Virus record (IMG/VR): IMGVR_UViG_2541047747_000001
DNA from: a virus
Lineage: Duplodnaviria; Heunggongvirae; Uroviricota; Caudoviricetes
Length of the DNA: 46,204 nt
Direction: 5' to 3' (one strand)
Shown here: piece by piece, positions 1 through 46,204 of the stretch
Position numbering within the stretch: the stretch's first letter is position 1
How the letters are laid out: every line of letters begins with the position of its first letter
Notes under the pieces: model-generated
Told to the model about the DNA's origin: nothing
Seen by the model: only the letters and a program-made list of their open reading frames with translations
The model's database searches: none
Made by a program: the position numbers and the translations under genes

Positions 1-207
1 TTTGGTTCATCGGTGCCGAATCATGCCGCCATTTACTGTGGTGACGGCGAGCTGCTGCACCATATTCCTGAACAACTGAGTAAACGGGAGAGGTATTCCA
101 AAAAATGGCAACGACGAACGCATTCTGTCTGGCGTCACCGCCACTGGCACGCATCTGCCTTCACGGGGATTTGCAACGATTTGGCCGCCGCCTCAGCCTG
201 TATGTGA
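1..207 (+). CDS. K: tail assembly protein K, 3' portion (continues the ORF that begins at 45582 across the junction)
   Basis: Translation FGSSVPNHAAIYCGDGELLHHIPEQLSKRERY... closely matches the lambda K C-terminus as recalled; same frame as the 45582 ORF. Confidence 0.85.
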   Translation, partial: FGSSVPNHAAIYCGDGELLHHIPEQLSKRERYSKKWQRRTHSVWRHRHWHASAFTGICNDLAAASACM

Positions 208-785
208 ACACGGCAGCGGAAGCCATCCGTGCCCTGTCGTTACAGGTGCCGGGCTTTCGCCGTCAGATGAACGAAGGCTGGTACCAGATACGTATTGCCG
301 GTGATGACACGGCACCGGAGGCGGTGTACGCCCGTCTTCACGAACAGCTGGGTGAGGGAACGGTCATCCACATTGTGCCGCGACTGGCCGGAGCCGGAAA
401 GGGCGGACTGCAGATTGTGCTGGGGGCGGCAGCCATCGTGGGCTCTTTCTTCACGGCCGGTGCCTCGATGGCGTTATGGGGTTCAGCCCTGGCAGCCGGT
501 GGTTTTTCTGCCACCACGATGCTGTTTTCACTGGGGGCCAGCATGATACTGGGCGGTGTGGCCCAGATGCTGGCCCCGAAGGCAAAAACACCGGATTACC
601 GCGTAACGGATAACGGCAGACAGAACACGTACTTTTCCTCGCTGGATAACATGATTGCCCAGGGGAACCCGATGCCGGTGCCTTACGGGGAAATGCTGGT
701 TGGCTCCCGCCGTATATCCCAGGACATCAGCACCCGTGATGAAGGCGGGGGCGGAAAGGTCGTGGTTATCGGGCGGCAGGGGTAA
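105..785 (+). CDS. I: tail assembly protein I
   Basis: 226 aa; N-terminus MATTNAFCLASPPLARICLHGDLQRFGRR and glycine-rich hydrophobic core resemble lambda gpI; overlaps K 3' end as in lambda. Confidence 0.85.
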   Translation: MATTNAFCLASPPLARICLHGDLQRFGRRLSLYVNTAAEAIRALSLQVPGFRRQMNEGWYQIRIAGDDTAPEAVYARLHEQLGEGTVIHIVPRLAGAGKGGLQIVLGAAAIVGSFFTAGASMALWGSALAAGGFSATTMLFSLGASMILGGVAQMLAPKAKTPDYRVTDNGRQNTYFSSLDNMIAQGNPMPVPYGEMLVGSRRISQDISTRDEGGGGKVVVIGRQG

Positions 786-1031
786 AAAGAATAAAAAAAT
801 CCCGCAGTGATCGCGGAGCTGCGGGGACAGACAAAGATTAGAGTTAAGGAGTTGTTTTTGTTACTCGGGCAAAAAACACTAACGCAGCGAAATTATACGC
901 GCCACAGTCAGTTTGTGAAAATGTGAAGATATTCAGAATTTTTATTCAGTCATGATACAGGCATCCTCCGGGGTGCCTGTTGTTTTTTGGGCATAAACAG
1001 ATTCAGACATCAGACAGGAGAGGGGGAGCGA

Positions 1032-4000
1032 GTGGGTAAAGGTGGCGGTAAGGCGCACACACCGCGCGAGGCGAAGGATAATCTCAAATCCACGCAGATG
1101 ATGAGTGTGATTGATGCGATTGGTGAGGGACCGATAGAAGGCCCGGTGAAGGGACTGCAGAGTATCCTGGTGAACAAAACCCCGCTGACGGACACGGACG
1201 GTAATCCCGTGATACACGGTGTGACCGCGGTCTGGCGTGCCGGGGAGCAGGAGCAGACACCACCGGAAGGCTTTGAGTCCTCCGGAGCTGAAACCGGACT
1301 GGGCGTGGAAGTGACGAAGGCAAAACCGGTGACGCGCACCATTACGTCCGCGAACATTGACCGCCTGCGGGTTACCTTCGGGGTGCAGTCACTGGTGCAG
1401 ACCACGTCAAAGGGCGACCGTAATCCTTCCTCTGTCCGGATTCTGATTCAGTTACAGCGTAATGGCCGCTGGGTGACGGAAAAGGATGTCACCATTAACG
1501 GCAAGACCACCTCGCAGTTCCTGGCCTCGGTGATTCTGGATAATCTGCCTCCCCGGCCCTTTAACATCCGGATGGTCAGGGAGACGGCGGACAGCACCAC
1601 GGACCAGCTGCAGAATAAGACGCTGTGGTCGTCATACACCGAAATCATCGATGTGAAACAGTGCTACCCGAACACGGCCATTGTGGGGCTGCAGGTGGAT
1701 GCGGAGCAGTTCGGCGGCCAGCAGATGACGGTGAACTACCATATCCGCGGTCGCATCATCCAGGTGCCGTCAAACTATGACCCGGAAAAACGCACGTACA
1801 GTGGTATCTGGGACGGCAGCCTGAAACCGGCATACAGCAACAACCCGGCCTGGTGTCTGTGGGACATGCTGACTCACCCGCGCTACGGCATGGGAAAACG
1901 TCTGGGGGCGGCGGATGTGGACAAGTGGGCGCTGTATGCCATCGGGCAGTACTGCGACCAGACGGTCCCGGATGGTTTCGGGGGGACCGAGCCGCGGATG
2001 ACCTTTAATGCGTACCTGGCACAACAGCGTAAGGCGTGGGACGTTCTCAGTGATTTCTGCTCTGCGATGCGCTGTATGCCGGTATGGAACGGCCAGACGC
2101 TGACGTTCGTTCAGGACCGTCCGTCGGATGTGGTGTGGCCGTACACCAACAGCGATGTGGTGGTGGATGATAACGGCGTGGGTTTCCGCTACAGCTTCAG
2201 TGCCCTGAAGGACCGGCACACGGCAGTGGAGGTGAATTACACCGACCCGCAGAACGGCTGGCAGACCTCCACGGAACTGGTGGAAGACCCGGAAGCCATA
2301 CTGCGCTACGGACGCAACCTGCTGAAGATGGACGCGTTCGGCTGTACCAGCCGCGGTCAGGCCCACCGTGCCGGGCTGTGGGTGATAAAGACCGAACTGC
2401 TGGAAACGCAGACGGTGGATTTCACGCTCGGGTCACAGGGGCTGCGTCACACACCCGGTGACATCATTGAAATCTGTGATAACGACTATGCCGTGACCAT
2501 GACCGGCGGACGTGTCCTGTCCATCGATGCCGCCAGCCGTACCCTGACGCTGGACCGGGAGGTGACACTGCCGGAGACCGGCACGGCCACTGTTAATCTG
2601 ATTAACGGCAGCGGTAAGCCGGCGAGCGTGGCCATCACCGCACACCCCGCGCCTGACCGGATACAGGTCAGCACCCTGCCGGATGGTGTGGAGACATACG
2701 GGGTGTGGGGACTCTCCCTGCCGTCACTGCGTCGTCGCCTGTTCCGCTGTGTCTCCATCCGGGAAAACACGGACGGCACGTTCGCCATCACGGCGGTGCA
2801 GCACGTACCGGAAAAAGAAGCCATTGTGGATAACGGGGCCAGCTTTGAGCCGCAGTCAGGCAGCCTGAACAGCGTTATCCCACCGGCAGTGCAGCACCTG
2901 ACGGTGGAGGTGAGTGCAGCTGACGGTCAGTATCTGGCACAGGCGAAATGGGACACGCCGCGGGTGGTGAAGGGTGTGCGCTTCAGTCTGCGTCTGACCA
3001 GCGGAAGCGGAGAAGACAGCCGTCTGGTGACCACTGCCATCACCGCAGACACGGAGCACCGTTTCAGCGGCCTGCCGCTCGGGGAATACACCCTGACGGT
3101 GCGGGCGATAAACAGCTACGGCCAGCAGGGTGAACCTGCCACCACCACCTTCCGGATTAACGCACCTGCAAAACCCGCCACCATTGAGCTGACGCCGGGG
3201 TATTTTCAGATAACGGCGGTACCGGTGCTGGCGGTGTATGACCCGACGGTGCAGTTTGAGTTCTGGTTTTCGGAAAAACGCATCACGAACACGGCACAGG
3301 TGGAAAAATCTGCCCGTTATCTGGGGACCGGCAGTCAGTGGACTGTCCAGGGCGATCGGATTAAGCCGGGGATGGATTTCTGGTTTTATGTGCGCAGTGT
3401 CAACCTGGTGGGCAAGTCTGCATTTGTGGAAGCCAGCGGGCAGGCCAGCAATGATGCAAAAGGGTATCTGGAATTTTTCCGTGGTCTGATAGATGAGACG
3501 CTGCTGGGGCAGGCACTGAAAGAGCGCATTGATGCTTCAGCGCTGCGTACGGAGGTCACGCAACTGGAAGAAGATATCCGTCAGCGGATGGACACGGATA
3601 TCGCAGAAGTGACCCGGAAAATCGGGAAGGCGGAAAACAGCCTCACGCAGCTGGTTGCGAAAAAGAATGAGGACCAGACACTGGCCATCGCGCAGGTGAG
3701 CCAGAAAGTGGACCGGGTGAGCAGTGAAATCTCACAGACTGTCAGCCAGGGGCAGTCAGAAAACGCCCGACAGATAGCACAGGTCCGCCAGTACGTGGAT
3801 AAAAAAGGGAGTGAAATTACCTCGACCACGGATAAAAAGCTGGGTGACCAGGCCGTGACCATACAGCAAATCCAGCGGGTTCAGTCAGACACGCGCAATG
3901 AGCTGAATGCCATGTATATGCTGAAGGTGCAGAAAACAAAAAACGGTATTCCCTATGTGGCCGGGATTGGTGCGGGGATTGAGGATGTTGATGGTCAGAC

Positions 4001-4724
4001 GCTGAGCAGTATTCTGCTGCAGGCTGACCGTATCGCGATGATTACCCCGGAGAATGGCAACACCACGCCGCTGTTTGTGGCGCAGGGGAATCAGCTGTTC
4101 ATGAACGACGTGTTCCTGAAGCGACTGTTTGCGGTGAGCATCACGTCATCCGGCAATCCTCCTACGTTTTCCCTGACGCCGGATGGCAGGCTGGCAGCCC
4201 GCAATGCGGATATCAGTGGAGCCATCACGGCGAATACCGGCACGCTCAATAATGTCACCATTAACGAGAACTGTGTCATCAGAGGGAAACTGTCTGCAAA
4301 CCAGATTGAAGGCGATCTCGTTAAAACAGTGGGTAAGGCTTTCCCCCGTGACTCCCGTGCACCGGAGAGGTGGCCATCAGGGACCATTACCGTCAGGGTT
4401 TATGACGATCAGCCGTTTGACCGGCAAATTGTTATTCCGGCGGTGGCATTCAGCGGTGCCAGACATGAGCGGGAGAATAACGATATTTATTCGTCATGCC
4501 GCCTGATAGTACGGAAAAACGGTGCTGAAATTTATAACCGTACCGCGCTGGATAATACGCTGGTTTACAGTGGTGTTATTGATATGCCTGCTGGTCGCGG
4601 CCACATGACGCTGGAGTTTTCTGTATCAGCATGGTGGGTAAATGGCTGGTATCCCACAGCAAGTATCAGCGATTTGCTGGTTGTTGTGATGAAGAAAGCC
4701 ACTGCAGGCATCACGATTAGCTGA
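1032..4724 (+). CDS. J: tail tip host specificity protein J (central tail fibre)
   Basis: Long ORF; [22 protein letters not shown]-terminus and many conserved blocks shared with lambda J; likely GTG start at 1032 after an AGGAG-like RBS; ORF track starts at 987. Confidence 0.9.
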
Positions 4725-4743
4725 ATTTTATAACCCCAATACG

Positions 4744-4770
4744 GGCGCCAGAAATGGCGCCTTTTTTATT
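4744..4770 (+). terminator. rho-independent terminator after J
   Basis: GGCGCC-agaaat-GGCGCC stem-loop followed by TTTTTTATT. Confidence 0.65.
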
Positions 4771-4791
4771 GCAGAAAAGCGAGAGGTAATT

Positions 4792-5391
4792 ATGCGTAAA
4801 TTATGTGCTGTTATTCTGTCCGCAGTAGTCTGGCTGGTTGCCGCTGGTACGCCAGCGAGCGCAGCAGAGCATCAGTCCACACTAAGCGCCGGGTATCTTC
4901 AGACCCACACTGATATGCCAGGCAGCGATAATCTGAACGGGATTAACGTGAAATACCGTTATGAGTTTACGGACGCGCTGGGGCTGATTACGTCCTTCAG
5001 TTATGCCAATGCTGAGGATGAGCAAAAAACGCACTACAGCGATACCCGCTGGCATGAAGATTCCGTGCGTAACCGCTGGTTCAGCGTGATGGCGGGGCCA
5101 TCTGTACGCGTGAATGAATGGTTCAGTGCTTATGCGATGGCAGGTGTGGCTTACAGCCGTGTGTCGACGTTCTCCGGGGATTATCTCCGCGTAACTGACA
5201 ACAAGGGGAAAACGCACGATGTGCTGACCGGAAGTGATGACGATCGCCACAGCAACACGTCTCTGGCGTGGGGGGCTGGCGTGCAGTTTAACCCGACCGA
5301 ATCCGTGGCCATTGACCTTGCTTATGAAGGTTCCGGCAGTGGTGACTGGCGCACTGACGGTTTCATCGTAGGTGTCGGTTATAAATTCTGA
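4792..5391 (+). CDS. lom: Lom-like outer membrane protein (Ail/Lom family)
   Basis: 199 aa with signal peptide; C-terminal YEGSGSGDWRTDGFIVGVGYKF matches lambda Lom as recalled. Confidence 0.85.
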   Translation: MRKLCAVILSAVVWLVAAGTPASAAEHQSTLSAGYLQTHTDMPGSDNLNGINVKYRYEFTDALGLITSFSYANAEDEQKTHYSDTRWHEDSVRNRWFSVMAGPSVRVNEWFSAYAMAGVAYSRVSTFSGDYLRVTDNKGKTHDVLTGSDDDRHSNTSLAWGAGVQFNPTESVAIDLAYEGSGSGDWRTDGFIVGVGYKF

Positions 5392-5417
5392 TTAGCCAGG
5401 TAACACAGTGTTATGAC

Positions 5418-5445
5418 AGCCCGCCGGTTCAGGCGGGCTTTTTTG
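5418..5445 (+). terminator. rho-independent terminator after lom
   Basis: AGCCCGCC-ggttca-GGCGGGCT stem-loop followed by TTTTTT. Confidence 0.65.
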
Positions 5446-5455
5446 TGGAGTGGAT

Positions 5456-8400
5456 ATGGCAGCAGTAAAAATCTCAGGTGTGCTGAAAGATGGTGCGGGA
5501 AAACCAATACAGAACTGCACTATTCAACTGAAGGCAAAGCGTAACAGCACCACGGTACTGGTGAACACGGTGGCTTCTGAAAATCCGGATGAAGCCGGAC
5601 GTTACAGCATGGATGTTGAGTATGGCCAGTACAGCGTCACCCTGCTGGTTGAAGGTTTTCCGCCTTCACATGCCGGGACCATTACCGTCTATGAAGGTTC
5701 CAGACCAGGTACGCTGAATGATTTTCTCGGTGCCATGACGGAAGATGATGTCATGCCGGAGGCACTGCGCCGCTTTGAGCAGATGGTGGAAGAGGTGTCA
5801 CGTAACGCCTCCGCGGTTGCACAGAATACGGCAGCCGCGAAAAAATCAGCCAGCGATGCCAGTGCATCAGCCAGCGAGGCGGCAACTCATGCAACCGATG
5901 CTGCAGCCTCAGCACGTGCCGCCAGCACGTCAGCCGGACAGGCCGCGTCGTCGGCTCAGTCAGCGTCTTCCAGCGCAGGAACGGCATCGACAAAGGCCCG
6001 TGAAGCAGCAAAAAGTGCTGCTGCTGCAGAGTCATCAAAAAGCGCGGCAGCTACCAGCGCCAGTGCCGCGAAAACGTCAGAAACGAATGCCGCAGCATCA
6101 CAAAAATCGGCAGCCACTTCTGCATCCACAGCGACCACGAAAGCGTCAGAAGCTGCCACCTCGGCACGGGGTGCGGCGGCCTCAAAAGAGGCAGCGAAAT
6201 CTTCAGAAACGAATGCATCATCAAGTGCCAGTAGTGCAGCTTCCTCGGCAACGGCGGCAGGAAATTCCGCGAAGGCGGCAAAAACGTCCGAGACGAACGC
6301 CAGGTCTTCTGAAACAGCAGCGGGACAGAGCGCCTCAGCTGCGGCAGGTTCAAAAACAGCGGCTGCATTATCTGCCAGTGCCGCGTCAACAAGTGCCGGG
6401 CAGGCCTCAGCCAGTGCCACCGCCGCCGGAAAATCGGCAGAAAGCGCCGCATCATCCGCTTCAACAGCCACAACGAAGGCTGGCAAAGCCACTGAGCAAG
6501 CCACTGCAGCAGCGAGGTCTGCTTCTGCAGCAAAAACCTCTGAAACAAATGCAAAGACTTCAGCAGACAATGCTGCTTCCTCTAAGGCGGCAGCCGCATC
6601 GTCAGCCAGTTCAGCGGCGTCATCGGCATCATCTGCGTCTGCTTCAAAAGATGAGGCGACCAGACAAGCGTCAGCAGCGAAAGGTAGTGCCACGACAGCA
6701 ACAACGAAAGCATCAGAGGCGGCAGGCAGTGCGACGGCGGCATCTCAGAGCAAAGTTGCTGCTGAATCCGCGGCAACGCGTGCCGAAACAGCGGCAAAAC
6801 GGGCAGAGGATATTGCATCCGCCGTGGGGCTTGAGGATGCGAGCACGACGAAAAAGGGGATAGTACAGCTCAGCAGTGCAACAAACAGCACCAGTGAAAA
6901 GCTGGCGGCAACGCCAAAGGCAGTTAAAACTGTTAAAGATAGTTCAGTTCAAAAAACTGGCGACACAATGGGAGGGCAGTTAAAAATCAGCACGATAAAT
7001 GCTCTTCGAATATTCAACCAAGCCTTTGGCCTTATTTTTAGGCGTTCCGAAGATTATCTTCATCTTATTCCGACTAATGAAGGGGAGGGGGAAAATGGAG
7101 ACATCGGTTCATTAAGACCATTCTCTATAAACTTAAGATCAGGGTTGGTGTCCATCGGTAATGGACTAAAAGTTGGTGGTAGTGTTACTGGTAATTTGAC
7201 CGGAAACGCAGATACTGCGACCAAGATCAAGACAGCACGTAAGATTGGGGGCGTGGCATTTGATGGATCGGCAGATATCAACTTGCCTGGAGTCAACGCT
7301 ACCGGTAATCAAAACACTACAGGTAATGCTGCGACCGCCACGAAACTTCAGGCAGCCAGAACGATTAACGGTGTGTCATTTGATGGTAGTGCAAATATCA
7401 CATTGACCCCTTCAAATATTGGGGCATTGGCATTAACTGGAGGGACTCTTTCAGGTGGTTTAACTGCTGCTGGTGAGGTTATTTCAAGGTCAGCAAATGG
7501 TCTGCGTATTGCCTATGGCAACTATGGATTCTTTATCCGAAATGATGGATCAAACACATATTTTATGTTGACAGATTCGGGTAACAGTCTTGGTACGCAC
7601 AATAGCTTAAGGCCGTTTATAATTAGTAACCATACTGGCAATGTTACAATTGCAACTAAATTAAACGCGAGTGGTGGTATCACTGGATCTTTATCGGGTA
7701 ATGCAAGCACAGCAACCAAATTGCAAACTGCAAGGACAATTAACGGCGTAAAATTTGACGGCTCGGCAAATATTGAAGCGTTTCCGCCAGGTGTTCCGCT
7801 GCCGTGGCCATCAGATACACCACCTGCAGGTTATGCGATCATGCAGGGGCAGACGTTTGATAAGGCAGCATATCCGAAACTGGCTATTGCCTATCCTTCA
7901 GGTGTTATTCCAGATATGCGCGGCTGGACAATCAAGGGCAAACCCGCCAGTGGCCGGGCCGTATTGTCTCAGGAACAGGACGGCATAAAATCGCACACCC
8001 ACAGCGCCAGCGCATCCAGTACGGATTTGGGGACGAAAACCACATCGTCGTTTGATTACGGCACTAAATCCACGAATAACACCGGGGCGCATACGCACAG
8101 TCTGAGTGGCTCTACGGGGTCTGCCGGTGTTCATACTCATGGTAATGGTATTCGTTGGCCAGGAGGCGGCGGTTCTGCGTTAGCATTTTATGATGGCGGT
8201 GGGTTCACTTATGTCCAGAATTCACAGTATCAAGTAAGCCCGGAGACTTCTTCCTATAGATCGTATTATCAACGTATTCAGACACAGTCAGCAGGTGCTC
8301 ATACCCACTCGCTGTCTGGTACTGCAGCAAGTTCTGGCGCACATGCACATACTGTAGGTATTGGTGCGCATACGCACTCCGTTGCGATTGGTTCACATGG

Positions 8401-8485
8401 ACACACCATCACCGTTAACGCTGCGGGTAACGCGGAAAACACCGTCAAAAACATCGCATTTAACTATATTGTGAGGCTTGCATAA
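5456..8485 (+). CDS. stf: side tail fibre protein Stf
   Basis: N-terminus [27 protein letters not shown] and C-terminus [18 protein letters not shown] match lambda Stf as recalled; long Ala/Ser-rich KTSETNA repeats; GGAG RBS before the ATG at 5456. Confidence 0.9.
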
Positions 8486-9069
8486 TGGCATTCAGAATGA
8501 GTGAACAAGCACGGACCATAAAAATTTATAATCTGCTGGCCGGAACTAATGAATTTATTGGTGAAGGTGACGCATATATTCCGCCTCATACAGGTCTGCC
8601 AGCAAACAGTACCGATATTGCACCACCAGATATTCCTGCTGGCTTTGTGGCTGTTTTCAACAGTGATGAGGCATCGTGGCATCTCGTTGAAGACCATCGG
8701 GGTAAAACGGTTTATGACGTAGCGTCAGGGGACGAGTTATTTATTTCTGAACTCGGTCCGTTACCGGAAAATGTTACCTGGTTATCGCCGGAAGGGGAGT
8801 TTCAGAAGTGGAACGGCACAGCCTGGGTGAAGGATACGGAAGCAGAAAAACTGTTCCGGATCCGGGAGGCGGAAGAAACAAAAAACAGCCTGATGCAGGT
8901 AGCCAGCGAGCATATTGCGCCGCTTCAGGATGCTGCAGATCTGGAAATTGCAACAGAGGAAGAAATCTCGTTGCTGGAAGCATGGAAAAAGTATCGGGTA
9001 TTGCTGAACCGTGTTGATACGTCAACTGCACCTGATATTGAGTGGCCTACGAACCCTGTCAGGGAGTAA
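8485..9069 (+). CDS. tfa: tail fibre assembly protein Tfa
   Basis: 194 aa, [42 protein letters not shown] nearly identical to lambda Tfa as recalled; start overlaps stf stop (TAATG). Confidence 0.9.
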
Positions 9070-9083
9070 TCATTGGGATTATG

Positions 9084-9116
9084 CCGCAGCACGTCTTAAG
9101 CAAGAACGTGCTGCGG
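9084..9116. terminator. perfect 11-bp inverted repeat between convergent tfa and dinI-like gene (possible bidirectional or factor-dependent terminator)
   Basis: CCGCAGCACGT-cttaagcaaga-ACGTGCTGCGG; no flanking U-tract on either strand. Confidence 0.4.
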
Positions 9117-9184
9117 TTGGATGGTGAACTTTCGATAGTGCGAGTATTGAATGATTTCCAGCCGTTACCGATTTTACGTGTTAA

Positions 9185-9433
9185 TTAGTGAACAAACCAC
9201 TCGTCAGCAGACTCCCAGGTATCTTTCAGAGTTTCCTGAACAAAAGTTTTAGCTGAATCTTTATCGGCGGTGCGCGTAACAGAAAGGCCATCGTTGCTGG
9301 TAGCTTTTACGATCACCTCTACATCGTCATAACGTTTACTGATGCGTCGGGTTAATTCTTCCTTTAACGCATCCACAGCACCGGTTGGCATTTTAGTCAT
9401 TTTTTCTTTGGCTATGCAGATTTCAATACGCAT
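9185..9433 (-). CDS. dinI: DinI-like DNA damage-inducible protein
   Basis: 82 aa; MRIEI...AVDAL..EL.RRI...[10 protein letters not shown] pattern typical of the DinI family; two LexA boxes directly upstream. Confidence 0.8.
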
Positions 9434-9448
9434 AAAAGTCCCTCTACA

Positions 9449-9492
9449 CTGTGTTTGTATACAGTATCATTTTTAACTGTATGGATAAACAG
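9449..9492 (-). promoter_or_regulatory. two LexA (SOS) boxes overlapping the dinI-like promoter
   Basis: CTGTgtttgtatACAG (9449-9464) and CTGTatggataaACAG (9477-9492) fit CTGT-N8-ACAG; minus-strand -35 TTGACA (rc of 9495-9500) with 17-bp spacer to TAAAAA. Confidence 0.75.
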
Positions 9493-9509
9493 TGTCAAGG
9501 GTGAGGGAA

Positions 9510-11038: not shown

Positions 11039-11093
11039 CGATACCTCCAGACGCCCAAGAGCGATACGAGCTTACATATTTCATGATATTAAA

Positions 11094-12328: not shown

Positions 12329-12338
12329 GTGTTACTCC

Positions 12339-36312: not shown

Positions 36313-36325
36313 TTCCTGGTTCAGG

Positions 36326-38284: not shown

Positions 38285-38370
38285 ACGTCGCAGATAACAA
38301 CTCTGATGGCCCGTAAGGGCTTTTTTTGTACCTGAAATCAGCCCCTGAACGGGGCTGTGCGGAGACAGTT

Positions 38371-38694
38371 ATGGCAAAGAATTTTGTAGAAGAAGGAAAA
38401 ACGGTGGCGATTGTTGCCAGTGCAGCCATCAGCAGCGGAGATCTGGTGCAGGTGGGTGATGTTTTTGCGGTGGCGCTGACCGATATTCCACAGGGTGAAA
38501 CAGGCGACGGCATGACCGAAGGTGTGTTTATGCTGCCTAAGCTGAAAACGGATGATATGAAAACGGGTAAGAAGGTTTATCTGAAGTCCGGAAAAGTTCA
38601 GCTGACTAACAGCGGCTCTGATCCGCTGGTCGGGGTTGTCTGGGCAGATGCCGGAACCAGTGCAGAAGAAGTGCCGGTAAAACTCAATGTCTGA
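38371..38694 (+). CDS. putative head decoration or capsid-associated protein
   Basis: 108 aa from MAKNFVEEGK after a GGAGA RBS; positional call after the capsid gene. Confidence 0.45.
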   Translation: MAKNFVEEGKTVAIVASAAISSGDLVQVGDVFAVALTDIPQGETGDGMTEGVFMLPKLKTDDMKTGKKVYLKSGKVQLTNSGSDPLVGVVWADAGTSAEEVPVKLNV

Positions 38695-38962
38695 TCCCTT
38701 TTCCCGGCTGGCAGCGCGTATGGATGCGATCACGGTCAGAAAGATGGGAAAGACAGCCTCGATTAATGATGTCGATATGACTGTGATCCCGGGAGAAACA
38801 CTGGCAGAGCTGAATGCTCTGTCCGGACCTGCGGTCTCTCTGGTGGTGTTTTCTTCGGGATACCGCCCACGGCGCGGGGATCGCGTTGTTTATGACGGAC
38901 AACAATGGACGGTCACACGGCATGAACGCTTTAACGGTAAACCAATGATCTTTATTGAGTAA
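38687..38962 (+). CDS. putative head completion / head-tail adaptor protein
   Basis: 91-aa ORF between capsid and tail genes; positional call. Confidence 0.45.
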   Translation: MSDPFSRLAARMDAITVRKMGKTASINDVDMTVIPGETLAELNALSGPAVSLVVFSSGYRPRRGDRVVYDGQQWTVTRHERFNGKPMIFIE

Positions 38963-38973
38963 AGAGGTGTGGG

Positions 38974-39564
38974 ATGAAGGGGCTTGAGAATGCCATCCGC
39001 AATCTGAACAGCCTTGATACCCGTATGGTGCCACAGGCCAGCGCATGGGCGATAAACCGTGTGGCACAGAAAGCGGTCTCGGTTGCCACCCGGAAGGTTG
39101 CCGGGAATACCGTTGCGGGAGATAACCAGGTGAAAGGGATCCCCCTGAAACTGGTACGTCAGCGTGTCCGGGTGTTTAAAGCCAGTCCGTCAGGAAAAAT
39201 GACGGCCAGGATCCGCGTTAACCGGGGCAATCTGCCCGCCATCAAACTGAACACAACACGGCGGCGTGCTGGTGAAGGACTGAGAGTGGGAAAATACTTT
39301 TTCCGGGGGGCATTTGTTCAGCAACTGGCGAATGGCCGCTGGCATGTTCTGAGGCGTCTTCCTGAAGCGCGTTTTGCAACAGGGCATGACCATCAGGGCA
39401 GGCCAAGAAAAAATCGTCTTCCTGTGGAGGTAGTGAAAATCCCGCTGTCCGGACCGCTGACACAGGCATTTGAAGATGCCCGCGACCGCATCATTGCTGC
39501 GGAAATGCCGAAACAGCTGGGGTATGCACTGAAACAACAACTGAGATTATGGCTGACCCGATGA
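38974..39564 (+). CDS. Z: minor tail protein Z-like
   Basis: FVQQLANGRWHVLRR...VVKIPLSGPL...LGYALKQQLR matches lambda gpZ blocks as recalled. Confidence 0.75.
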   Translation: MKGLENAIRNLNSLDTRMVPQASAWAINRVAQKAVSVATRKVAGNTVAGDNQVKGIPLKLVRQRVRVFKASPSGKMTARIRVNRGNLPAIKLNTTRRRAGEGLRVGKYFFRGAFVQQLANGRWHVLRRLPEARFATGHDHQGRPRKNRLPVEVVKIPLSGPLTQAFEDARDRIIAAEMPKQLGYALKQQLRLWLTR

Positions 39565-39962
39565 ACCGACATACACAAATCCGCCAGGTCGTACTGGCAC
39601 GCCTTCGGGAACAGTGTGGAGACAGCGCCACGTTTTTTGACGGGCTTCCGGCATTTATTGATGCGCAGGAACTGCCTGCCGTGGCGGTGTGGCTGAGTGA
39701 TGCTCAGTACACCGGAAAAATGACGGATGAAGATGACTGGCAGGCTGTTCTGCATATTGCTGTCTTCATCCGGGCACAGGCACCGGATTCAGAGCTGGAT
39801 ATGTGGATGGAGAGCACCATTTTCCCGGCCCTGAATGATGTACCGGCACTTTCCGGACTCATCGACACCCTGATCCCACTCGGTTTTAACTATCAACGTG
39901 ATAATGAGATGGCCACCTGGGCGATGGCGGAAATCACGTACCAGATCACGTACACGAATTAA
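39549..39962 (+). CDS. U: tail terminator protein U-like
   Basis: ATFFDGLPAFIDAQELPAVAVWLSDAQYTG...PDSELDMWMES matches lambda gpU blocks as recalled. Confidence 0.8.
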   Translation: MADPMNRHTQIRQVVLARLREQCGDSATFFDGLPAFIDAQELPAVAVWLSDAQYTGKMTDEDDWQAVLHIAVFIRAQAPDSELDMWMESTIFPALNDVPALSGLIDTLIPLGFNYQRDNEMATWAMAEITYQITYTN

Positions 39963-39972
39963 GGAGGTGGCA

Positions 39973-40716
39973 ATGACCACACCAAATCCACTGGCAAAGA
40001 CGAAAGGTGCGGGGACGACGTTCTGGATGTATACCGGCAACGGCGACGCATTTGCGAACCCTTTGTCGGACACTGACTGGCTGCGTCTTGCGATGGTGAA
40101 GGATCTGCAACCTGGCGAAATGACCGCTGATGCAGAAGATGATACTTATCTCGATGATGAAGATGCAGACTGGAAAACGACAACCCAGGGGCAGAAATCA
40201 GTCGGTGATACTTCGGCGACGCTGGCCTGGCGTCCGGGTGACAGCGGGCAGAAAAAACTGGTTCAGTTGTTCGACTCCGGTGAAGTCTGCGCGTTTCGTA
40301 TCAAATATCCCAACGGTACTGTTGATGTTTTCCGTGGCTGGCTGAGTTCACTGGGTAAAACCATTGCCTCAAAAGACGTGATGACCCGCACTGTGAAAAT
40401 CAGCGGTGTGGGGCGTCCGTATCTGGCAGAGGAAGGCACTGAAACAGTGAGCGTTACCGGGCTGACGGTGGCACCGGCATCTGCCAGTGTAAAAGTGGGA
40501 GCAACCACCACGCTGACCTTTACAGTAAAACCTGACGGAGCCAGTGACAAAGCGATCAGTGTGCATTCGTCAGATCCACAGACTGCCACGGTGACCCTGA
40601 ACGGGCTTGTAGCCACGGTGAAAGGCGTGAAGCAGGGCAGTGTCAGCATTGTGGGCATGACCGCTGACGGGAATTTTGTGGCTGTGGCTGCGGTGACTGT
40701 CAGCGCCGCAGGTTAA
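39973..40716 (+). CDS. V: major tail protein V (with C-terminal Ig-like domain)
   Basis: AAGGAGG RBS; KGAGTTFWMYTGNGDAFANPLSDTDW and YLDDEDADW blocks match lambda gpV. Confidence 0.9.
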   Translation: MTTPNPLAKTKGAGTTFWMYTGNGDAFANPLSDTDWLRLAMVKDLQPGEMTADAEDDTYLDDEDADWKTTTQGQKSVGDTSATLAWRPGDSGQKKLVQLFDSGEVCAFRIKYPNGTVDVFRGWLSSLGKTIASKDVMTRTVKISGVGRPYLAEEGTETVSVTGLTVAPASASVKVGATTTLTFTVKPDGASDKAISVHSSDPQTATVTLNGLVATVKGVKQGSVSIVGMTADGNFVAVAAVTVSAAG

Positions 40717-40736
40717 CAGGACGATACTTATCATTT

Positions 40737-40760
40737 GCCCCGGTTATCCGGGGCTTTTTT
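40737..40760 (+). terminator. rho-independent terminator after V
   Basis: GCCCCGG-ttat-CCGGGGC followed by TTTTTT. Confidence 0.65.
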
Positions 40761-40773
40761 GCAGGTGGAGAAC

Positions 40774-41163
40774 ATGATGTTTCTGAAACAGGGCACGTTT
40801 AATTATGAAAAACAGTCCGTGGTGCTCAGTGAGCTGTCCGGGCTGCAGAGAATTGAATATCTGGCGTTTGTTCAGCAGCGAACGGCAAAGTTTGATGCCG
40901 GTGAGGGAGAACTGCCGGAGGCTGAACGACAGATTGCTTTTCTGCGGATGGGGATGGATATCAATGCCTGGCTGGTTTCCCGCTCACTGTGGAATGCGGA
41001 TCAGTCTAAGGATGTAGAGACGCTTTGCGCATCCGTTATTACAACATGGTCGTATGATGCCCTGGGTGCGGGGGCGGAGATGGTTCTGTCGCTGAGCGGT
41101 ATGGGGGCCATTGATAATGCCGGGGATGATGAGCATGAGGCGCTGACGCCGGAAAAGTCCTGA
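40774..41163 (+). CDS. G: tail assembly chaperone G
   Basis: MMFLKQGTFNYEKQSVVLSELSGLQRIEYLA resembles lambda gpG; followed by the T frame in -1. Confidence 0.8.
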   Translation: MMFLKQGTFNYEKQSVVLSELSGLQRIEYLAFVQQRTAKFDAGEGELPEAERQIAFLRMGMDINAWLVSRSLWNADQSKDVETLCASVITTWSYDALGAGAEMVLSLSGMGAIDNAGDDEHEALTPEKS

Positions 41164-41171
41164 CGCGGGAA

Positions 41172-41501
41172 ATGCAGTTTGTCATGCGGCTTGCCCGGGA
41201 GTTCCGGCGGGCAGACTGGCGGCGGATGCTGTCGGAAATGTCGGCCACTGAGCTTGGTGAGTGGGGCGATTATTTCCGGATGCAGAGCTTCAGTGATGTG
41301 TGGATGGATGCGCAGTTTGCCTCGCTGAAGGCATTGATCGTGAGAATGGTGTCCGGCAGCAGTGATGCTGCGGTGGCTGATTTCAGCCTTTTACCGGAAG
41401 AGAACGGGATACCGGAGCGAACGGACGAAGAACTGATGCATCTTGGGGAAGGTATTTCCGGAGGTGTGCGTTATGGACCAGATAGCCAACCTGGTCATTG
41501 A
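41172..41501 (+). CDS. T: tail assembly protein T segment (expressed as a G-T fusion by -1 programmed frameshift)
   Basis: ORF in the -1 frame relative to G, open from the end of G; candidate slippery site GGAAAAG at 41151-41157. Confidence 0.65.
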   Translation: MQFVMRLAREFRRADWRRMLSEMSATELGEWGDYFRMQSFSDVWMDAQFASLKALIVRMVSGSSDAAVADFSLLPEENGIPERTDEELMHLGEGISGGVRYGPDSQPGH

Positions 41502-44500
41502 TTTGGGGATTGATGCGGCAGAGTTTAAAAATGAAATTCCCCGTATCAAAAACCTTCTGAATGGTGCAGCCAGCGATGCAGAACGGTCTTCTGCCCGTAT
41601 GCAGCGTTTTATGGAGCGTCAGACTCAGGCCGCCCGGCAGACAACGCAGGCGGCTTCTTCGGCTGCAACAGCCGCATCCGTTCATGCGCAGACGGTGGAG
41701 AAGAACGCACAGGCTCATGAACGCATGGCCCGTGAGGTGGAGAAAACCCGCCAGCGCATGGAGGCACTGAGCCAGAAAATGCGCGAGGAACAGGCGCAGG
41801 CCATGGCTCTGGCGGAGGCTCAGGATAAAGCGGCTGCTGCGTTTTATCGTCAGATTGACAGTGTGAAACAGGCCAGTGCGGGGCTGCAGGAATTACAGCG
41901 TATTCAGCAGCAGATCCGACAGGCCAGAAACAGTGGCGGGATTGGTCAGCAGGATTATCTGGCGCTGATTTCTGAGGTTACTGCGAAAACCCGTGTTCTT
42001 ACACAGGCTGAGGAAGAGGCTACCCGACAGAAAGTGGCGTTTATCCGTCAGCTTAAAGAGCAGGCAACCCGCCAGAATCTTTCTTCTTCTGAGTTGCTTC
42101 GTGCTAAGGCTGCCCAGCTGGGGGTAAGCAGTGCTGCAGAAGTGTATATCCGCAAAATGGAGCAGGCAGGAAAAGCCACGCATTCGCTGGGGCTGAAAAG
42201 TGCAGCGGCCCGTCAGGAGATAGGCGTTCTGATAGGTGAACTGGCCCGCGGAAATTTAGGTGCGCTGAGGGGATCCGGAATAACGCTGGCTAACCGTGCC
42301 GGGTGGATAGACACATTGATGTCACCGAAAGGCATGATGCTTGGCGGGGTTATTGGCGGTATTGCCGCGGCTGTCTATGGCCTGGGTAAAGCCTGGTATG
42401 ACGGTCAGAAGGAGGGGGAAGAATTTAACCGCCAGCTGTCGCTGACGGGGCATTATGCCGGAGTCACTGCCGGGCAGCTGTGGACGCTCAGTCGTGCTAT
42501 TTCCGGGAATGGTATCACGCAACATGCTGCAGCCGGTGCGCTGGCTCAGGTGGTGGGGAGTGGTGCATTTCGTGGAAACGATATCGGTATGGTGGCGAGA
42601 GCTGCCGCACAGATGGAGCGATCGGTTGGCCAGTCGGTCAGCGATACCATAAATCAGTTTAAGCGGCTGAAGGATGATCCTGTAAATGCCGCGAAGTCTC
42701 TGGACAATGAGCTGCATTTTCTTACTGCCACTCAGCTTGAGCAGATACGCGTCCTTGGAGAGCAGGGGCGGTCCAGTGATGCGGCACGGATAGCCATGTC
42801 TGCACTGGCAGAGGAAACCGGTCGGCGTACTGCGGATATTGATAATAACCTCAATGCGCTGGGCAGTACGCTGCAAACTTTGTCTGACTGGTGGAAGCAG
42901 TTCTGGGATGCGGCCATGAATATTGGTCGTGAAGATTCGCTGGATGCGCAGATTGCCACTTTGCAGGAGAAAGTGTCGCGGGCGAAAAGACTCCCCTGGA
43001 CGGCATCATCTTCTCAGGTTGAATACGATCAGCAGCGTCTTAACGATCTTCAGGAGAAAAAACGCCAGAAGGATTTGCAGGATGCAAAAGAGCAGGCAGA
43101 GCGGAATTATCAGGAGCAACAGAAACGCCGTAATGCTGAAAATGCTGCACTGAACCGGATGAATGAAACGGAAGCTGCACGACATCAGCGTGAAATTGCG
43201 CGTATTAATGCCATGCAGTACGCCGATCAGGCTGTCAGGGATGCTGCGATACAACGTGAAAATGAACGTTACGAGAAAGCCCTGGCATCCGGTAAGAAAA
43301 AAACACGCGAAACCCGTAATGATGAGGCCACCCGGTTATTGCTGCAGTACAGCCAGCAACAGGCACAGGTGGAAGGACAGATTGCTGCTGCAAGACAGTC
43401 AGCAGGCATTGCCACTGACAGGATGACAGAAGCGCATAAACAGCTTCTGGCTCTGCAGCAGCGCATCAGCGATCTGGACGGGAAAAAACTGACGGCAGAT
43501 GAAAAGAGTGTGCTGGCCCGTAAAGATGAACTGATTCAGGCACTGACGCTGCTGGATGTAAAACAGCAGGAGCTTCAGAAACAGACGGCACTCAACGATC
43601 TGAAGAAAAAAACAATTCAGCTGACCAGTCAACTGGCTGAAGAAGAGCGCGCTCAGCGTCAGCAACATGACCTGGATATCGCCACGGTGGGTATGGGTGA
43701 TCAGCAGCGGCAGCGATATCAGGTACAACTGAGTCTTCGCCAGAAATACCAGCAACAGCTGGAGCAGTTGAGGCGGGATAGTGAGCAGAAAGGGACATAT
43801 AACACGGATGACTACAGAAAGGCCGAGCAGGCGCTGACGGAGAGCCTGAACCGACAACTGAATGAGAATCACCGTTACTGGCAACAGCTTGAAATTGCTC
43901 AGGGTAACTGGAAAAACGGTGCTATGCGGGCGTTTCAGAATTTCACGGCAGATGCGGATAATGCGGCAGGCACTGCTGAGCAGATGCTTACAGCGGCATT
44001 TAACAGTGCAGGTAATGCACTGGCAACGTTCTGTACTACCGGAAAACTGAACTTCAAATCTTTTACCGCCTCGCTCCTTTCTGATCTGGCAAAAATCATG
44101 GCTCAGATGTCCATGATGCAGGCAGTTAAGGGGATTGGTTCGGCGTTTGGCTGGGGGAGTGCAGCAACTGCCAGTGTGACGCCCAATGCTGATGGTGGTG
44201 TTTATCAGTCTGCTGATTTGAGTCGCTACAGTGGCACGGTGGTTAATCGTCCGACGTTTTTTGCTTTTGCAAAAGGTGCAGGTGTGATGGGGGAAGCTGG
44301 GCCTGAAGCCATTCTGCCTCTGCGTCGTGGTGCTGACGGTAAGCTGGGGGTTGTGGCGGATATTGGTGGTTCAGGTATGGCGATGTTTGCCCCGCAGTAC
44401 AACATCGAGATCAATAACGATGGCACGAACGGGCAGATAGGTCCGGCTGCCCTGAAGGTGGTTTATGATCTCGGGAAAAAAGCAGCAGCGGACTTTATGC

Positions 44501-44547
44501 AACAGCAGTCCCGTGATGGTGGTCTGTTCTCCGGAGGTGGACGATGA
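41473..44547 (+). CDS. H: tail tape measure protein H
   Basis: About 1020 aa, coiled-coil rich with C-terminal Gly-rich region; GGAGG RBS before the ATG at 41473. Confidence 0.85.
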   Translation: MDQIANLVIDLGIDAAEFKNEIPRIKNLLNGAASDAERSSARMQRFMERQTQAARQTTQAASSAATAASVHAQTVEKNAQAHERMAREVEKTRQRMEALSQKMREEQAQAMALAEAQDKAAAAFYRQIDSVKQASAGLQELQRIQQQIRQARNSGGIGQQDYLALISEVTAKTRVLTQAEEEATRQKVAFIRQLKEQATRQNLSSSELLRAKAAQLGVSSAAEVYIRKMEQAGKATHSLGLKSAAARQEIGVLIGELARGNLGALRGSGITLANRAGWIDTLMSPKGMMLGGVIGGIAAAVYGLGKAWYDGQKEGEEFNRQLSLTGHYAGVTAGQLWTLSRAISGNGITQHAAAGALAQVVGSGAFRGNDIGMVARAAAQMERSVGQSVSDTINQFKRLKDDPVNAAKSLDNELHFLTATQLEQIRVLGEQGRSSDAARIAMSALAEETGRRTADIDNNLNALGSTLQTLSDWWKQFWDAAMNIGREDSLDAQIATLQEKVSRAKRLPWTASSSQVEYDQQRLNDLQEKKRQKDLQDAKEQAERNYQEQQKRRNAENAALNRMNETEAARHQREIARINAMQYADQAVRDAAIQRENERYEKALASGKKKTRETRNDEATRLLLQYSQQQAQVEGQIAAARQSAGIATDRMTEAHKQLLALQQRISDLDGKKLTADEKSVLARKDELIQALTLLDVKQQELQKQTALNDLKKKTIQLTSQLAEEERAQRQQHDLDIATVGMGDQQRQRYQVQLSLRQKYQQQLEQLRRDSEQKGTYNTDDYRKAEQALTESLNRQLNENHRYWQQLEIAQGNWKNGAMRAFQNFTADADNAAGTAEQMLTAAFNSAGNALATFCTTGKLNFKSFTASLLSDLAKIMAQMSMMQAVKGIGSAFGWGSAATASVTPNADGGVYQSADLSRYSGTVVNRPTFFAFAKGAGVMGEAGPEAILPLRRGADGKLGVVADIGGSGMAMFAPQYNIEINNDGTNGQIGPAALKVVYDLGKKAAADFMQQQSRDGGLFSGGGR

Positions 44548-44873
44548 AAACCTTCCGCTGGAAAGTGAAACCCGGGATGGATGTGACATCGGCTCCTTCC
44601 GTCAGGGAGGTGCGCTTTGGTGATGGCTATTCCCAGCGTGCGCCTGCCGGGCTGAACGCTGACCTGAAAACGTACAGCGTGACGCTGTCTGTCTCCCGTG
44701 AGGAGGCCACGGCGCTGGAGTCGTTTCTGGCTGAGCACGGGGGCTGGAAGGCCTTTCTGTGGACGCCGCCTTATGGCTACCGGCAGATAAAGGTGACCTG
44801 CGCAAAATGGTCGTCGCGGGTCAGTATGTTGCGTGTTGAGTTCAGCGCAGAGTTTGAACAGGTGGTGAACTGA
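44544..44873 (+). CDS. M: minor tail protein M
   Basis: 109 aa MKTFRWKVKPGMDVTSAPSVREVRFGDGYSQRAPAGLNA, near-identical to lambda gpM as recalled. Confidence 0.9.
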   Translation: MKTFRWKVKPGMDVTSAPSVREVRFGDGYSQRAPAGLNADLKTYSVTLSVSREEATALESFLAEHGGWKAFLWTPPYGYRQIKVTCAKWSSRVSMLRVEFSAEFEQVVN

Positions 44874-45571
44874 TGCAGGATATCCGACAGGAAACACTGA
44901 ATGAATGCACCCGTGCGGAGCAGTCTGCCAGCGTGGTACTCTGGGAAATCGACCTGACGGTACAGGGCGGTGAGCGGTATTTTTTCTGTAATGAGCTGAA
45001 TGAAAAAGGGGAGCCGGTCACCTGGCAGGGGCGTAAGTATGAGGCATACCCGATTGACGGCAGCGGCTTTGAGATGAACGGCCGGGGCAGCAGTGCCCGC
45101 CCGTCGCTGACGGTGTCCAATCTGTTTGGCCTTGTCACCGGGATGGCGGAGGACCTGCAGAGTCTGGTGGGGGCCACGGTGGTCCGCCGCCGGGTGTATG
45201 CCCGTTTTCTGGATGCGGTGAATTTCGTTGCGGGCAATCCGGAGGCGGACCCGGAGCAGGAGCTGAGTGACCGCTGGGTGGTGGAGCAGATGTCGCAGCT
45301 GACAGCCATGACGGCCTCGTTTGTGCTGGCCACACCGACCGAGACGGACGGGGCGCTGTTTCCCGGTCGCATCATGCTGGCGAACACCTGTATGTGGACC
45401 TACCGCTCTGATGAGTGTGGTTACACGGGCGGGGCAGTGGCGGATGAGTTCGATAAACCCACCACGGATATCCGTAAGGACAGATGCAGCAAGTGCATGC
45501 GCGGGTGTGAACTGCGCAGGAATGTCGGCAATTTTGGCGGTTTCCTTTCCATTAATAAACTTTCGCAGTAA
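44873..45571 (+). CDS. L: tail tip protein L
   Basis: 232 aa MQDIRQETLNECTRAEQSASVVLWEIDL...NVGNFGGFLSINKLSQ, matches lambda gpL. Confidence 0.9.
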   Translation: MQDIRQETLNECTRAEQSASVVLWEIDLTVQGGERYFFCNELNEKGEPVTWQGRKYEAYPIDGSGFEMNGRGSSARPSLTVSNLFGLVTGMAEDLQSLVGATVVRRRVYARFLDAVNFVAGNPEADPEQELSDRWVVEQMSQLTAMTASFVLATPTETDGALFPGRIMLANTCMWTYRSDECGYTGGAVADEFDKPTTDIRKDRCSKCMRGCELRRNVGNFGGFLSINKLSQ

Positions 45572-45581
45572 ATCCCGGTTT

Positions 45582-46204
45582 ATGACACAGACTGAATCAG
45601 CGATTCTGGCGCATGCCCGGCGGTGTGCGCCTGCGGAGTCGTGCGGCTTCGTGATAAGCACGCCGGAGGGGGAGCGGTATATCCCTTGTGTGAATATTTC
45701 CGCAGAGCCGGAGGCGTATTTTCGTATCGCACCGGAAGACTGGCTGCGGGCAGAGATGCAGGGGGAGATTGTGGCACTGGTCCACAGTCATCCCGGTGGG
45801 CTGCCCTGGCTGAGCGAGGCTGACCGGCGGCTGCAGATAAAAAGCGCACTGCCCTGGTGGCTGGTCTGCCGGGGTGACATTCACAAATTCCGCTGTGTGC
45901 CACATCTGACGGGACGGCGCTTTGAGCACGGGGTGACGGACTGTTACACGCTGTTCCGGGATGCTTATCATCTGGCGGGGACTGAGATGCCGGATTTTCA
46001 TCGCGAGGATGACTGGTGGCGTCACGGTCAGAATCTCTATCTGGATAATCTGGAGGCCACAGGGCTGTATCAGGTGCCGTTGTCAGCGGCGCAGCCGGGC
46101 GATGTGCTGCTGTGCTGTTTTGGTTCATCGGTGCCGAATCATGCCGCCATTTACTGTGGTGACGGCGAGCTGCTGCACCATATTCCTGAACAACTGAGTA
46201 AACG
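45582..46204 (+). CDS. K: tail assembly protein K (JAB/MPN plus NlpC/P60-type), 5' portion running to the window end
   Basis: ATG at 45582; ESAILAHARRCAPAESCGF...HSHPGG...CYTLFRDAYH matches lambda gpK; frame continues through the terminal repeat. Confidence 0.85.
   Translation, partial: MTQTESAILAHARRCAPAESCGFVISTPEGERYIPCVNISAEPEAYFRIAPEDWLRAEMQGEIVALVHSHPGGLPWLSEADRRLQIKSALPWWLVCRGDIHKFRCVPHLTGRRFEHGVTDCYTLFRDAYHLAGTEMPDFHREDDWWRHGQNLYLDNLEATGLYQVPLSAAQPGDVLLCCFGSSVPNHAAIYCGDGELLHHIPEQLSK
46119..46204. repeat. terminal direct repeat identical to window positions 1-86 (circular junction or assembly overlap)
   Basis: Direct comparison of first and last lines: tttggttcatcggtgccgaatcatgccgcc... 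is present at both ends, in frame with gene K. Confidence 0.9.

Follow-up and report, generated by a model that had tools for sequence, protein, structure and literature searches.

A viral contig that very probably represents the complete, circularly closed genome of a lambda-like temperate phage of E. coli

The window, which is the whole stretch of 46,204 bp analysed here, opens within the tail tip assembly gene K. Open reading frames and the annotation of 99-100% identical prophages place the tail-tip and fibre genes downstream on the plus strand (204-9069): I (about 204-785), J (987/1032-4724), lom (4792-5391), a side tail fibre gene (5450/5456-8485) and tfa (8485-9069). A DinI-like gene on the minus strand (9185-9433) is the last gene on the P-arm side of the phage attachment site attP. 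Immediately to the right of this unsplit site, the minus strand encodes a tyrosine integrase, Int (9725-11038, Pfam Arm-DNA-bind_2 and Phage_integrase), and an excisionase, Xis (11094-11330, Pfam DUF1233 excisionase).

The early, immunity and replication region (11331-24495, mixed strands) was delineated from open reading frames and the annotation of the 99.98% identical prophage of E. coli GABEEC132. This set includes a LexA-family repressor (about 16445-17101, minus strand), a cro-like gene (17213-17422), O-like, DnaC-like and DnaB-like replication genes (20640-23873) and the antiterminator Q (24127-24495), as well as ead/Ea22-like genes and Rha/ash antirepressor modules. The adjacent cargo region (24559-29068, both strands) was assigned with Pfam. 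It encodes a C5-cytosine methyltransferase (24559-25599, plus strand), a HEPN nuclease (25568-26257, minus strand), a DUF262/GmrSD_N protein (26260-27417, minus strand) that matches NsnA (5.6e-46) and PD-T4-2_A (4.3e-27) in PADLOC, and an N6/N4 methyltransferase (28019-29068, plus strand). Three plus-strand tRNA genes with CAT, TCG and TCT anticodons (29118-29367) were detected by ARAGORN and Rfam and are listed as Ile, Arg and Arg in RefSeq.

The remaining genes are on the plus strand. Open reading frames and prophage annotation delimit a lysis cassette with a holin, a YdfR-like gene, a lysozyme and Rz/Rz1 (29808-31439). Packaging, head and tail genes (31948-45571) were identified by Pfam and from the near-identical prophages. 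They comprise a small terminase (31948-32487, DUF1441, 1.7e-44), a large terminase of the gpA type (32496-34595, GpA_ATPase 4.9e-81 and GpA_nuclease 1.8e-86), a portal (34732/34804-36312, Phage_portal_2, 6.4e-82), a ClpP-protease/major-capsid fusion (about 36257-38284) and head-tail and tail genes Z/U/V/G/T/H/M/L that extend up to 45571.

A cos site lies upstream of the small terminase gene and the gpA-type terminase (31730-31780, plus strand). It consists of a cosQ-like ACGGGTCC..CCGGTG block followed by cosN, so that the cosQ-like element is on the other side of cosN from the terminase genes. The predicted top-strand nick falls between 31763 and 31764 and would leave a 12-nt cohesive end GGGCGGGAGCGT (31764-31775); both positions are based on homology and on how the records of relatives were deposited. 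The linear record of phage Tritos and the record of cdtI start with GGGCGGGAGCGT and end with CTGCCACG. In an alignment to the ends of lambda (NC_001416), the cohesive end is identical at 9 of 12 positions, and the flanking ACG and CGCGG on its two sides are identical. The virion termini would thus be expected at this lambda-type cos, where a gpA-type terminase would cut concatemers into linear virion DNA with 12-nt cohesive (5') ends.

The ends of the window lie elsewhere, inside the coding sequence of K and away from cos. Positions 1-86 and 46119-46204 are identical at 86 of 86 bases on the plus strand, and this is the longest exact prefix that is also a suffix of the window. The pair (spacing 46118) is the only long-range direct repeat of this kind in the window, and an exact repeat of 86 bp is too long to be a coincidence within 46 kb. 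The overlap covers K codons 180-208, with the first base of codon 180 at 46119 (frame offset 0). With one of the copies left out, an uninterrupted reading frame starts at the ATG at 45582, extends through the 5' part of the gene (45582-46118), crosses the join and continues through the 3' part (1-207) to the stop codon at 205-207. The 247-aa product matches Prok-JAB (4.6e-16) and NlpC/P60 (9.2e-13) in Pfam, and its counterpart in the GABEEC132 and MEC2025-PR prophages is a 744-bp gene annotated 'C40 family peptidase'.

Closed E. coli genomes read through the join. The GABEEC132 chromosome follows the window from 9696 to 46204 at 99.98% identity and runs on into window positions 1-5351, with the 86 bp present once (37937-38022 of the extracted locus). 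In MEC2025-PR, a 16.4-kb block at 99.78% identity crosses the K join, again with a single copy, and two IMG/VR contigs likewise cross it with the 86 bp in single copy. The initial annotation had reported the end identity and had proposed that K is continuous, in frame, across the junction; the base-by-base comparison confirms the former, and the intact frame, the closed genomes and the two viral contigs bear out the latter. Standard de Bruijn k-mer sizes are odd, so 86 is not one of them, although it could be k-1 for k=87. The overlap length does not itself reveal the assembler.

A three-way alignment with attL and attR of strain 774 located the att core, CACGCAGTTAA (9696-9706, plus strand), 11 bp that are identical in attP, attL and attR. 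Joining the host flanks from this alignment rebuilds the yecE reading frame. An imperfect mimic of yecE runs on from the core to 9718. Strand exchange probably takes place within the segment CAGTTAA (9700-9706). Position 9699 is polymorphic (G/A), with G in attR and A in attL. attP has the attR-type G together with a P' arm of the attL type, a combination that an excision product or the native phage form would be expected to show. Candidate arm-type Int sites of the pattern TGGGRCAY occur in the P arm (9520, 9551, 9561, 9572) and in the P' arm (9771, 9782). Six of the nine matches in the whole window fall within these 270 bp (9520-9789), all on one strand, where about 0.046 would be expected (Poisson P ~1e-11). 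With candidate sites on both sides of the core, attP appears to be complete.

In the window the P arm (9060-9718) runs directly into the P' arm (9696 onward), whereas in lysogens they form the attL and attR that flank a 42-48 kb prophage, about 46 kb apart, inside host yecE. An exact look-up of Int returned only long chromosomal contigs in which int adjoins yecE. Across 20,395 complete E. coli records, no case of contiguous arms was found (at least 80% coverage of 8400-11100). A 33-nt attP pattern had no match in 185,579 representative genomes, among which E. coli is one genome. A 46-nt attP junction had no exact match in the scanned copy of IMG/VR, which evidently lacks the window's own contig, and an independent metagenome contig carries the same unsplit attP. 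yecE is a recognised insertion site of Stx phages (PMC9751135). The integration module is of the yecE-integrating phiP27 type, for which this insertion site is already known. Its Int, via the arm-binding domain, would recombine attP with attB inside yecE, with exchange within CAGTTAA.

We conclude that the window very probably represents one complete genome of a temperate, lambda-like E. coli phage in the form of a closed circle, with 46,118 unique bp and 86 redundant ones. The circle would have been opened at an arbitrary point within K, so that the 86 end bases are the same sequence reported twice. Such an overlap is the usual signature of an assembler that closes a cycle; in viral catalogues it counts as a 'direct terminal repeat' and hence as the mark of a complete genome. 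The window corresponds to a viral-catalogue contig, the 46,204-bp record IMG_VR_158 of ENA set ERZ26120531. Because the 86 bp are single copy in closed genomes and the virion ends are expected elsewhere, at cos, the overlap is an artefact of circular assembly and not a physical feature or terminal repeat of the phage DNA. The sequence is in a non-integrated configuration, with attP unsplit next to int and xis and cos unsplit as well. Since both sites are unsplit, the DNA that was sequenced appears to have included joined cos ends or circles excised by Int and Xis. Joined cos ends could come from annealed or ligated virion DNA, from concatemers or from replicative circles.

This agrees with the earlier proposals that attP is intact next to int rather than split into attL and attR, that the window is a phage or circular replicative form (or a circularised assembly) and not an integrated prophage, and that it is devoid of host flanks. 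When rotated to start at the att core, the window is collinear with the intact integrated prophage of MEC2025-PR and, in that prophage order, fits wholly between its attL and attR. The circular closure is deduced from the assembly rather than from reads, and the type of molecule can likewise only be suggested. The sequence alone does not discriminate between cos-joined virion DNA, replicating or excised circles and a collapsed tandem lysogen.

It is unlikely that the circle arose through the collapse of bacterial or metagenomic sequence during assembly rather than from a free phage molecule. The source could be a tandem double lysogen (attL-prophage-attP-prophage-attR) or a culture of lysogens in which a few cells had been induced spontaneously; in either case attP-spanning reads would close the cycle. 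The phage is integrated in yecE at 99.8-100% identity in several human E. coli isolates, and cos is contiguous in lysogens, so few such reads would suffice; nothing in the sequence itself sets a collapse apart from free phage. On the other hand, the contig carries no host-linked sequence, tandem lysogens are at best rare given their absence from the 20,395 complete E. coli records, and the 33-nt attP pattern is missing from the representative genomes (E. coli n=1). A chimera assembled in silico from two related prophages of one sample, joined via shared tail-gene sequence, is very improbable. It would account for the closest match differing by part, with GABEEC132 (99.98%) for 9696-46204 and MEC2025-PR (100%) for 1-9718, and co-resident prophages do share lambdoid tail genes; GABEEC132 carries two with an identical J protein. 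However, the genes follow the same order throughout as in a real intact prophage, closed genomes are continuous across both cos and the K join, attP is explained by attL and attR of real lysogens taken together, and the pattern of differences is that of ordinary lambdoid mosaicism.

The repeated contig ends formally match those of phages with T7- or T5-type packaging, and the window could on that basis be read as a packaged linear genome with a genuine 86-bp direct terminal repeat. We regard this as extremely improbable and reject membership in that group: the repeat lies inside the K frame, so that each end would carry a truncated gene, the 86 bp occur once in closed chromosomes, and a gpA-type terminase accompanies a lambda-type cosQ/cosN 14 kb away, where the linear records of relatives begin and end. 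A prophage still joined to its host flanks is just as improbable. The only host-like sequence found in the window is the 23-bp imperfect yecE mimic (9696-9718), and this reading is refuted by the alignment of attP with attL and attR and by the mapping of the whole window between attL and attR of integrated copies such as MEC2025-PR. It is highly improbable as well that the circle persists in the host as a genuine extrachromosomal form, with the yecE phage kept as a stable episome or pseudolysogen; the gene products annotated in near-identical prophages include no plasmid partition or plasmid-type replication functions.

The end overlap is an ordinary signature of assembly, and sequenced E. coli genomes already contain this phage as a prophage. 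Its value is mainly in bookkeeping, and it reveals no new biology of phage genome ends. The contig can serve as a complete phage genome, with a length of 46,118 bp instead of 46,204 and with K to be annotated across the join. To compare it with lambda-like phages, the circle can be opened at cos (31764), and to compare it with prophages, at the att core (9696). Near-identical prophages in human isolates now identify E. coli as the host and yecE as the integration site.

The yecE prophages of E. coli MEC2025-PR (NZ_CM195848.1), GABEEC132 (NZ_CP157262.1) and E02 (NZ_CM143911.1) are essentially the same phage. They share the gene order, att core, cos and cargo of the window and, unlike it, are in the integrated permutation, attL to attR in yecE. 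The MEC2025-PR prophage, identical to the window over 1-9718, is 94.7% identical to it in the terminase-head segment. The tail-fibre end of the GABEEC132 prophage abuts potB, and about 760 kb separate it from the matching fibre/attR arm, which is adjacent to yecD. Two prophage arms are similarly separated in E02.

The Stx2e phage phiP27 (AJ298298 / NC_003356), whose record was deposited in prophage order, has the same integration module. Its Int is identical at 416 of 437 residues (95%), and its annotated 11-bp attL and attR, CACGCAGTTAA, are identical to the window core. Parts of the early region within window 9696-24173 show about 93% identity, but the phiP27 match covers only 37% of window 1-25000, and phiP27 is absent from the best matches listed for the late half. 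No stx genes are among the window's products as annotated in the near-identical prophages. The packaging, head and tail module is shared with the Escherichia phages Tritos (OV696610), cdtI (NC_009514), HannyBb and mEp460, at 94-97% identity over about 14 kb. The cos of the window is also that of Tritos and cdtI, whereas the early regions of all four phages differ, and their matches cover 62-66% of 25001-46204, beginning at or beyond about 31764.

Lambda (NC_001416) shares the lambdoid architecture, the gpA-type large terminase, the portal family, a K with JAB and NlpC/P60 domains followed by I and J, and the cosQ-cosN layout. The window differs in its DUF1441 small terminase, which takes the place of Nu1, in the ClpP-protease/major-capsid fusion of its head and in replication by DnaB/DnaC-like genes. 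The integrase and att site differ as well, with yecE used here in place of the lambda site. With the assembly-derived 'direct terminal repeat' that serves as a completeness flag in IMG/VR, the window shares exact end identity and an arbitrary opening point, and there is no difference of substance between the two.

The first 86 bases of the window are identical to its last 86, and 86 bp is the longest exact match of prefix to suffix. In a repeat scan of the window this was the only long-range direct repeat pair of such kind, with a spacing of 46,118; because the copies are identical, the non-redundant genome comprises 46,118 bp. When one copy is dropped and the ends are joined, the tail-tip gene K (45582-46118 and 1-207) forms a single open frame of 247 amino acids, from an ATG at 45582 to a stop at 205-207, and codon 180 begins exactly at 46119. 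The initial annotation was thus correct in equating 46119-46204 with 1-86 and in placing K in frame and continuous across the junction. The K protein combines Prok-JAB and NlpC/P60 domains, an architecture like that of lambda tail-tip protein K, and is labeled 'C40 family peptidase' in near-identical prophages.

The attP region was compared with 5,426 complete E. coli genomes (20,395 records). The host gene yecE (DUF72) always adjoins the int/xis side, right of 9696, and the left, dinI side (9060-9718) neighbors yecD and the 5' end of yecE in lysogens. The two sides were contiguous in none of the 20,395 records (coverage of at least 80% of 8400-11100), and in strain 774 the attL and attR junctions lie ~42.5 kb apart. 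A three-way alignment identified an identical 11-bp core, CACGCAGTTAA (9696-9706), beyond which the phage carries an imperfect yecE copy reaching 9718 (whole copy 9696-9718, 23 bp). When the host flanks at attL and attR are brought together, the yecE reading frame is restored without interruption. The depositors of the Stx2e phage phiP27, whose integrase is identical to that of the window at 416/437 positions, assigned these same 11 bp to attL and attR; yecE is a recognized insertion site of Stx phages (PMC9751135). The window Int has arm-binding and catalytic domains, and a DUF1233 excisionase adjoins int. Six of the nine TGGGRCAY matches in the window fall on the same strand within 9520-9789, four in the P arm and two in the P' arm (expected ~0.05; Poisson P ~1e-11). 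These candidate arm sites, assigned by motif, cluster around the core in the arrangement expected of a complete attP. The same unsplit attP occurs, at 96% identity, on ERZ1035037 NODE-2290, an independent contig of metagenomic origin.

Comparison of window 9696-9706 with L011, L012, L013 and L018-L025 revealed a polymorphism at the fourth core base. Many lysogens have CACACAGTTAA, with the host allele A, at attL and CACGCAGTTAA at attR, and the window attP carries G. Strand exchange is therefore placed right of position 4, within the 7 bp CAGTTAA (9700-9706), and the window attP is composed exactly of the left part of attR, CAGTTAA and the right part of attL. The host allele is synonymous in yecE (TGC to TGT, Cys). 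In window 9696-9743 and at attL of L002, L011 and L013, the yecE frame stays open into phage DNA through the 23-bp imperfect copy, and RefSeq annotates a 771-bp DUF72 CDS whose start lies within the prophage, overlapping int at its 3' end; the disrupted gene may thus receive a substitute N-terminus from the phage. In some strains (L001, NZ_CP069528.1, 1-3048; L022) the attL-side yecE remnant is itself cut short by a second element with genes for a serine recombinase, a Dit-like baseplate protein and a tape measure protein, so two different prophages lie side by side in yecE.

The records of two related phages, Tritos (deposited as linear) and cdtI, start with GGGCGGGAGCGTCGCGG and finish with CTGCCACG. 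This junction corresponds to 31763/31764 in the window, 184 bp upstream of the small terminase gene. In an alignment with the true lambda ends (NC_001416), the cosQ block ACGGGTCC..CCGGTG is conserved, the nick-flanking bases are identical (ACG before, CGCGG after), and the cohesive ends share 9/12 bases (GGGCGGGAGCGT and GGGCGGCGACCT). The large terminase is of gpA type, with ATPase and endonuclease domains, and the portal belongs to the lambda family. Given the cos homology and this terminase, the virion chromosome is predicted to be a linear molecule whose 12-nt cohesive ends lie at 31764-31775, the nick positions following from homology. The window's own ends, in mid-K, are arbitrary.

Since attP and cos are both unsplit and the ends overlap within a gene, the window represents the genome in circularly permuted form. 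An overlap of this sort arises when a closed cycle is set out as linear sequence; viral catalogues such as IMG/VR take such end repeats as a sign of a complete, circular genome. The window corresponds to a 46,204-bp record, IMG_VR_158, of ENA set ERZ26120531. The overlap length of 86, being even, is not a standard odd assembler k. An integrated prophage has attP split and cos contiguous, and linear virion DNA has cos split and attP contiguous. Reads closing both therefore point to one of several sources: cos ends that had annealed or been ligated, concatemers or circular replicative forms, circles released by excision, lysogen DNA mixed with phage DNA, or a tandem lysogen. On sequence grounds, we consider it highly probable that the window is a complete phage genome in non-integrated form, closed as a circular assembly. 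The initial reading of a phage or circular form, or a circularized assembly, with attP intact beside int, is supported: the core is unsplit with arm motifs on both sides, which lysogens hold apart, cos is likewise unsplit, K is continuous and host DNA is absent.

Within this reading, DNA from a lysogen or tandem lysogen would also close both sites, and such an origin, instead of free phage, seems unlikely. An integrated prophage with host flanks is far less probable still. Rotated to prophage order (9696-46118 plus 1-9718; 46,141 bp), the window is collinear from attL to attR with the MEC2025-PR prophage (NZ_CM195848.1), in blocks of 99.98%, 94.7% (terminase-head segment) and 99.78%. That prophage has yecN and the yecE remnant as neighbors at one end and yecD and aspS at the other; the whole rotated window fits between its att sites, in agreement with the earlier statement that host flanks are absent. 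A physical 86-bp terminal repeat would also give identical ends. A chimeric circle would combine two related prophages by way of tail-gene sequence common to both. Four independent sequences show that the join in K is natural. In the closed GABEEC132 chromosome (NZ_CP157262.1), L011 1513-38022 matches window 9696-46204 at 99.98% and 37937-43287 continues as window 1-5351; the 86 bp are single-copy there because the alignments overlap by exactly 86 bp. One 16.4-kb block (99.78%) of the intact MEC2025-PR prophage crosses the join, and two IMG/VR contigs, L008 (99.8-100%) and L009 (97.5-98.9%), run through it uninterrupted. Both the terminal repeat and the chimera are accordingly very improbable, and the closed, non-integrated genome is preferred. 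Circular end overlaps are routine, and the finding is correct and ordinary.

In GABEEC132, the int-to-J part at yecE leads into another tail fibre followed by potB, and the corresponding fibre/dinI/attR arm, on the other strand and ~760 kb distant, adjoins yecD. The J protein is identical at both places (WP_000514735.1). The arrangement looks like a large chromosomal inversion through recombination between two lambdoid prophages, and this split prophage could not excise to yield the window. The arms are similarly apart in E02 (NZ_CM143911.1).

Two methyltransferases, one of C5-cytosine type (24559-25599) and one of N6/N4 type (28019-29068), bracket a reverse-strand pair located between Q and the tRNAs. 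The pair consists of a DUF262/GmrSD_N protein (26260-27417; PADLOC NsnA 5.6e-46, PD-T4-2_A 4.3e-27) and a HEPN_MAE_28990 nuclease (25568-26257) with no good PADLOC model match. This arrangement (24559-29068) resembles an anti-phage defence cassette of PD-T4-2/Nsn type carried by a prophage. Three tRNAs follow (29118-29367). The first is Met (CAT) according to ARAGORN and tRNA-Ile in RefSeq for the identical gene, the latter presumably reflecting a lysidine-modified reading; the two Arg tRNAs (TCG, TCT) serve rare codons. An STnc100 sRNA match (139 bits) comes directly after (29443-29642). Two tandem copies of an isrK sRNA and C4 antisense RNA unit (18778-18966 and 19434-19622; Rfam, all above gathering score) coincide with direct repeat D2 (114 nt, 81% identity) and sit inside the ash/Rha antirepressor genes; they form a duplicated antisense immunity module in the style of P1/P7. 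One A present in both GABEEC132 and MEC2025-PR is missing from the window at 18613, where the first Rha-family gene has its stop codon; this may reflect either a difference in homopolymer length or an error in sequencing. The N-terminal part of the side tail fibre gene contains a degenerate 33-nt (11-codon) repeat in six copies (5834-6559). A strong, full-length Rfam 'IS009' match (8828-9026, 220 bits) lies within the tail fibre assembly gene tfa; it probably reflects a family built from conserved prophage tfa sequence and not a separate RNA gene.

The gene set is that of a complete lambdoid genome: int/xis, an early region, a LexA-type repressor and cro; Rha/ash antirepressor modules and O/DnaC/DnaB-like replication genes; Q, two methyltransferases, the DUF262 and HEPN pair and three tRNAs; lysis genes, cos, terminase, portal and a protease-capsid fusion; and tail genes Z-U-V-G-T-H-M-L-K-I-J, lom, tail fibre, tfa and dinI. 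The phage is mosaic and built from known modules, joining a phiP27-type int/att and early region to packaging, head and tail genes of the Tritos/cdtI/mEp460 type, and as a whole it is already known as a yecE prophage, at 99.8-100% identity, in several human E. coli isolates.
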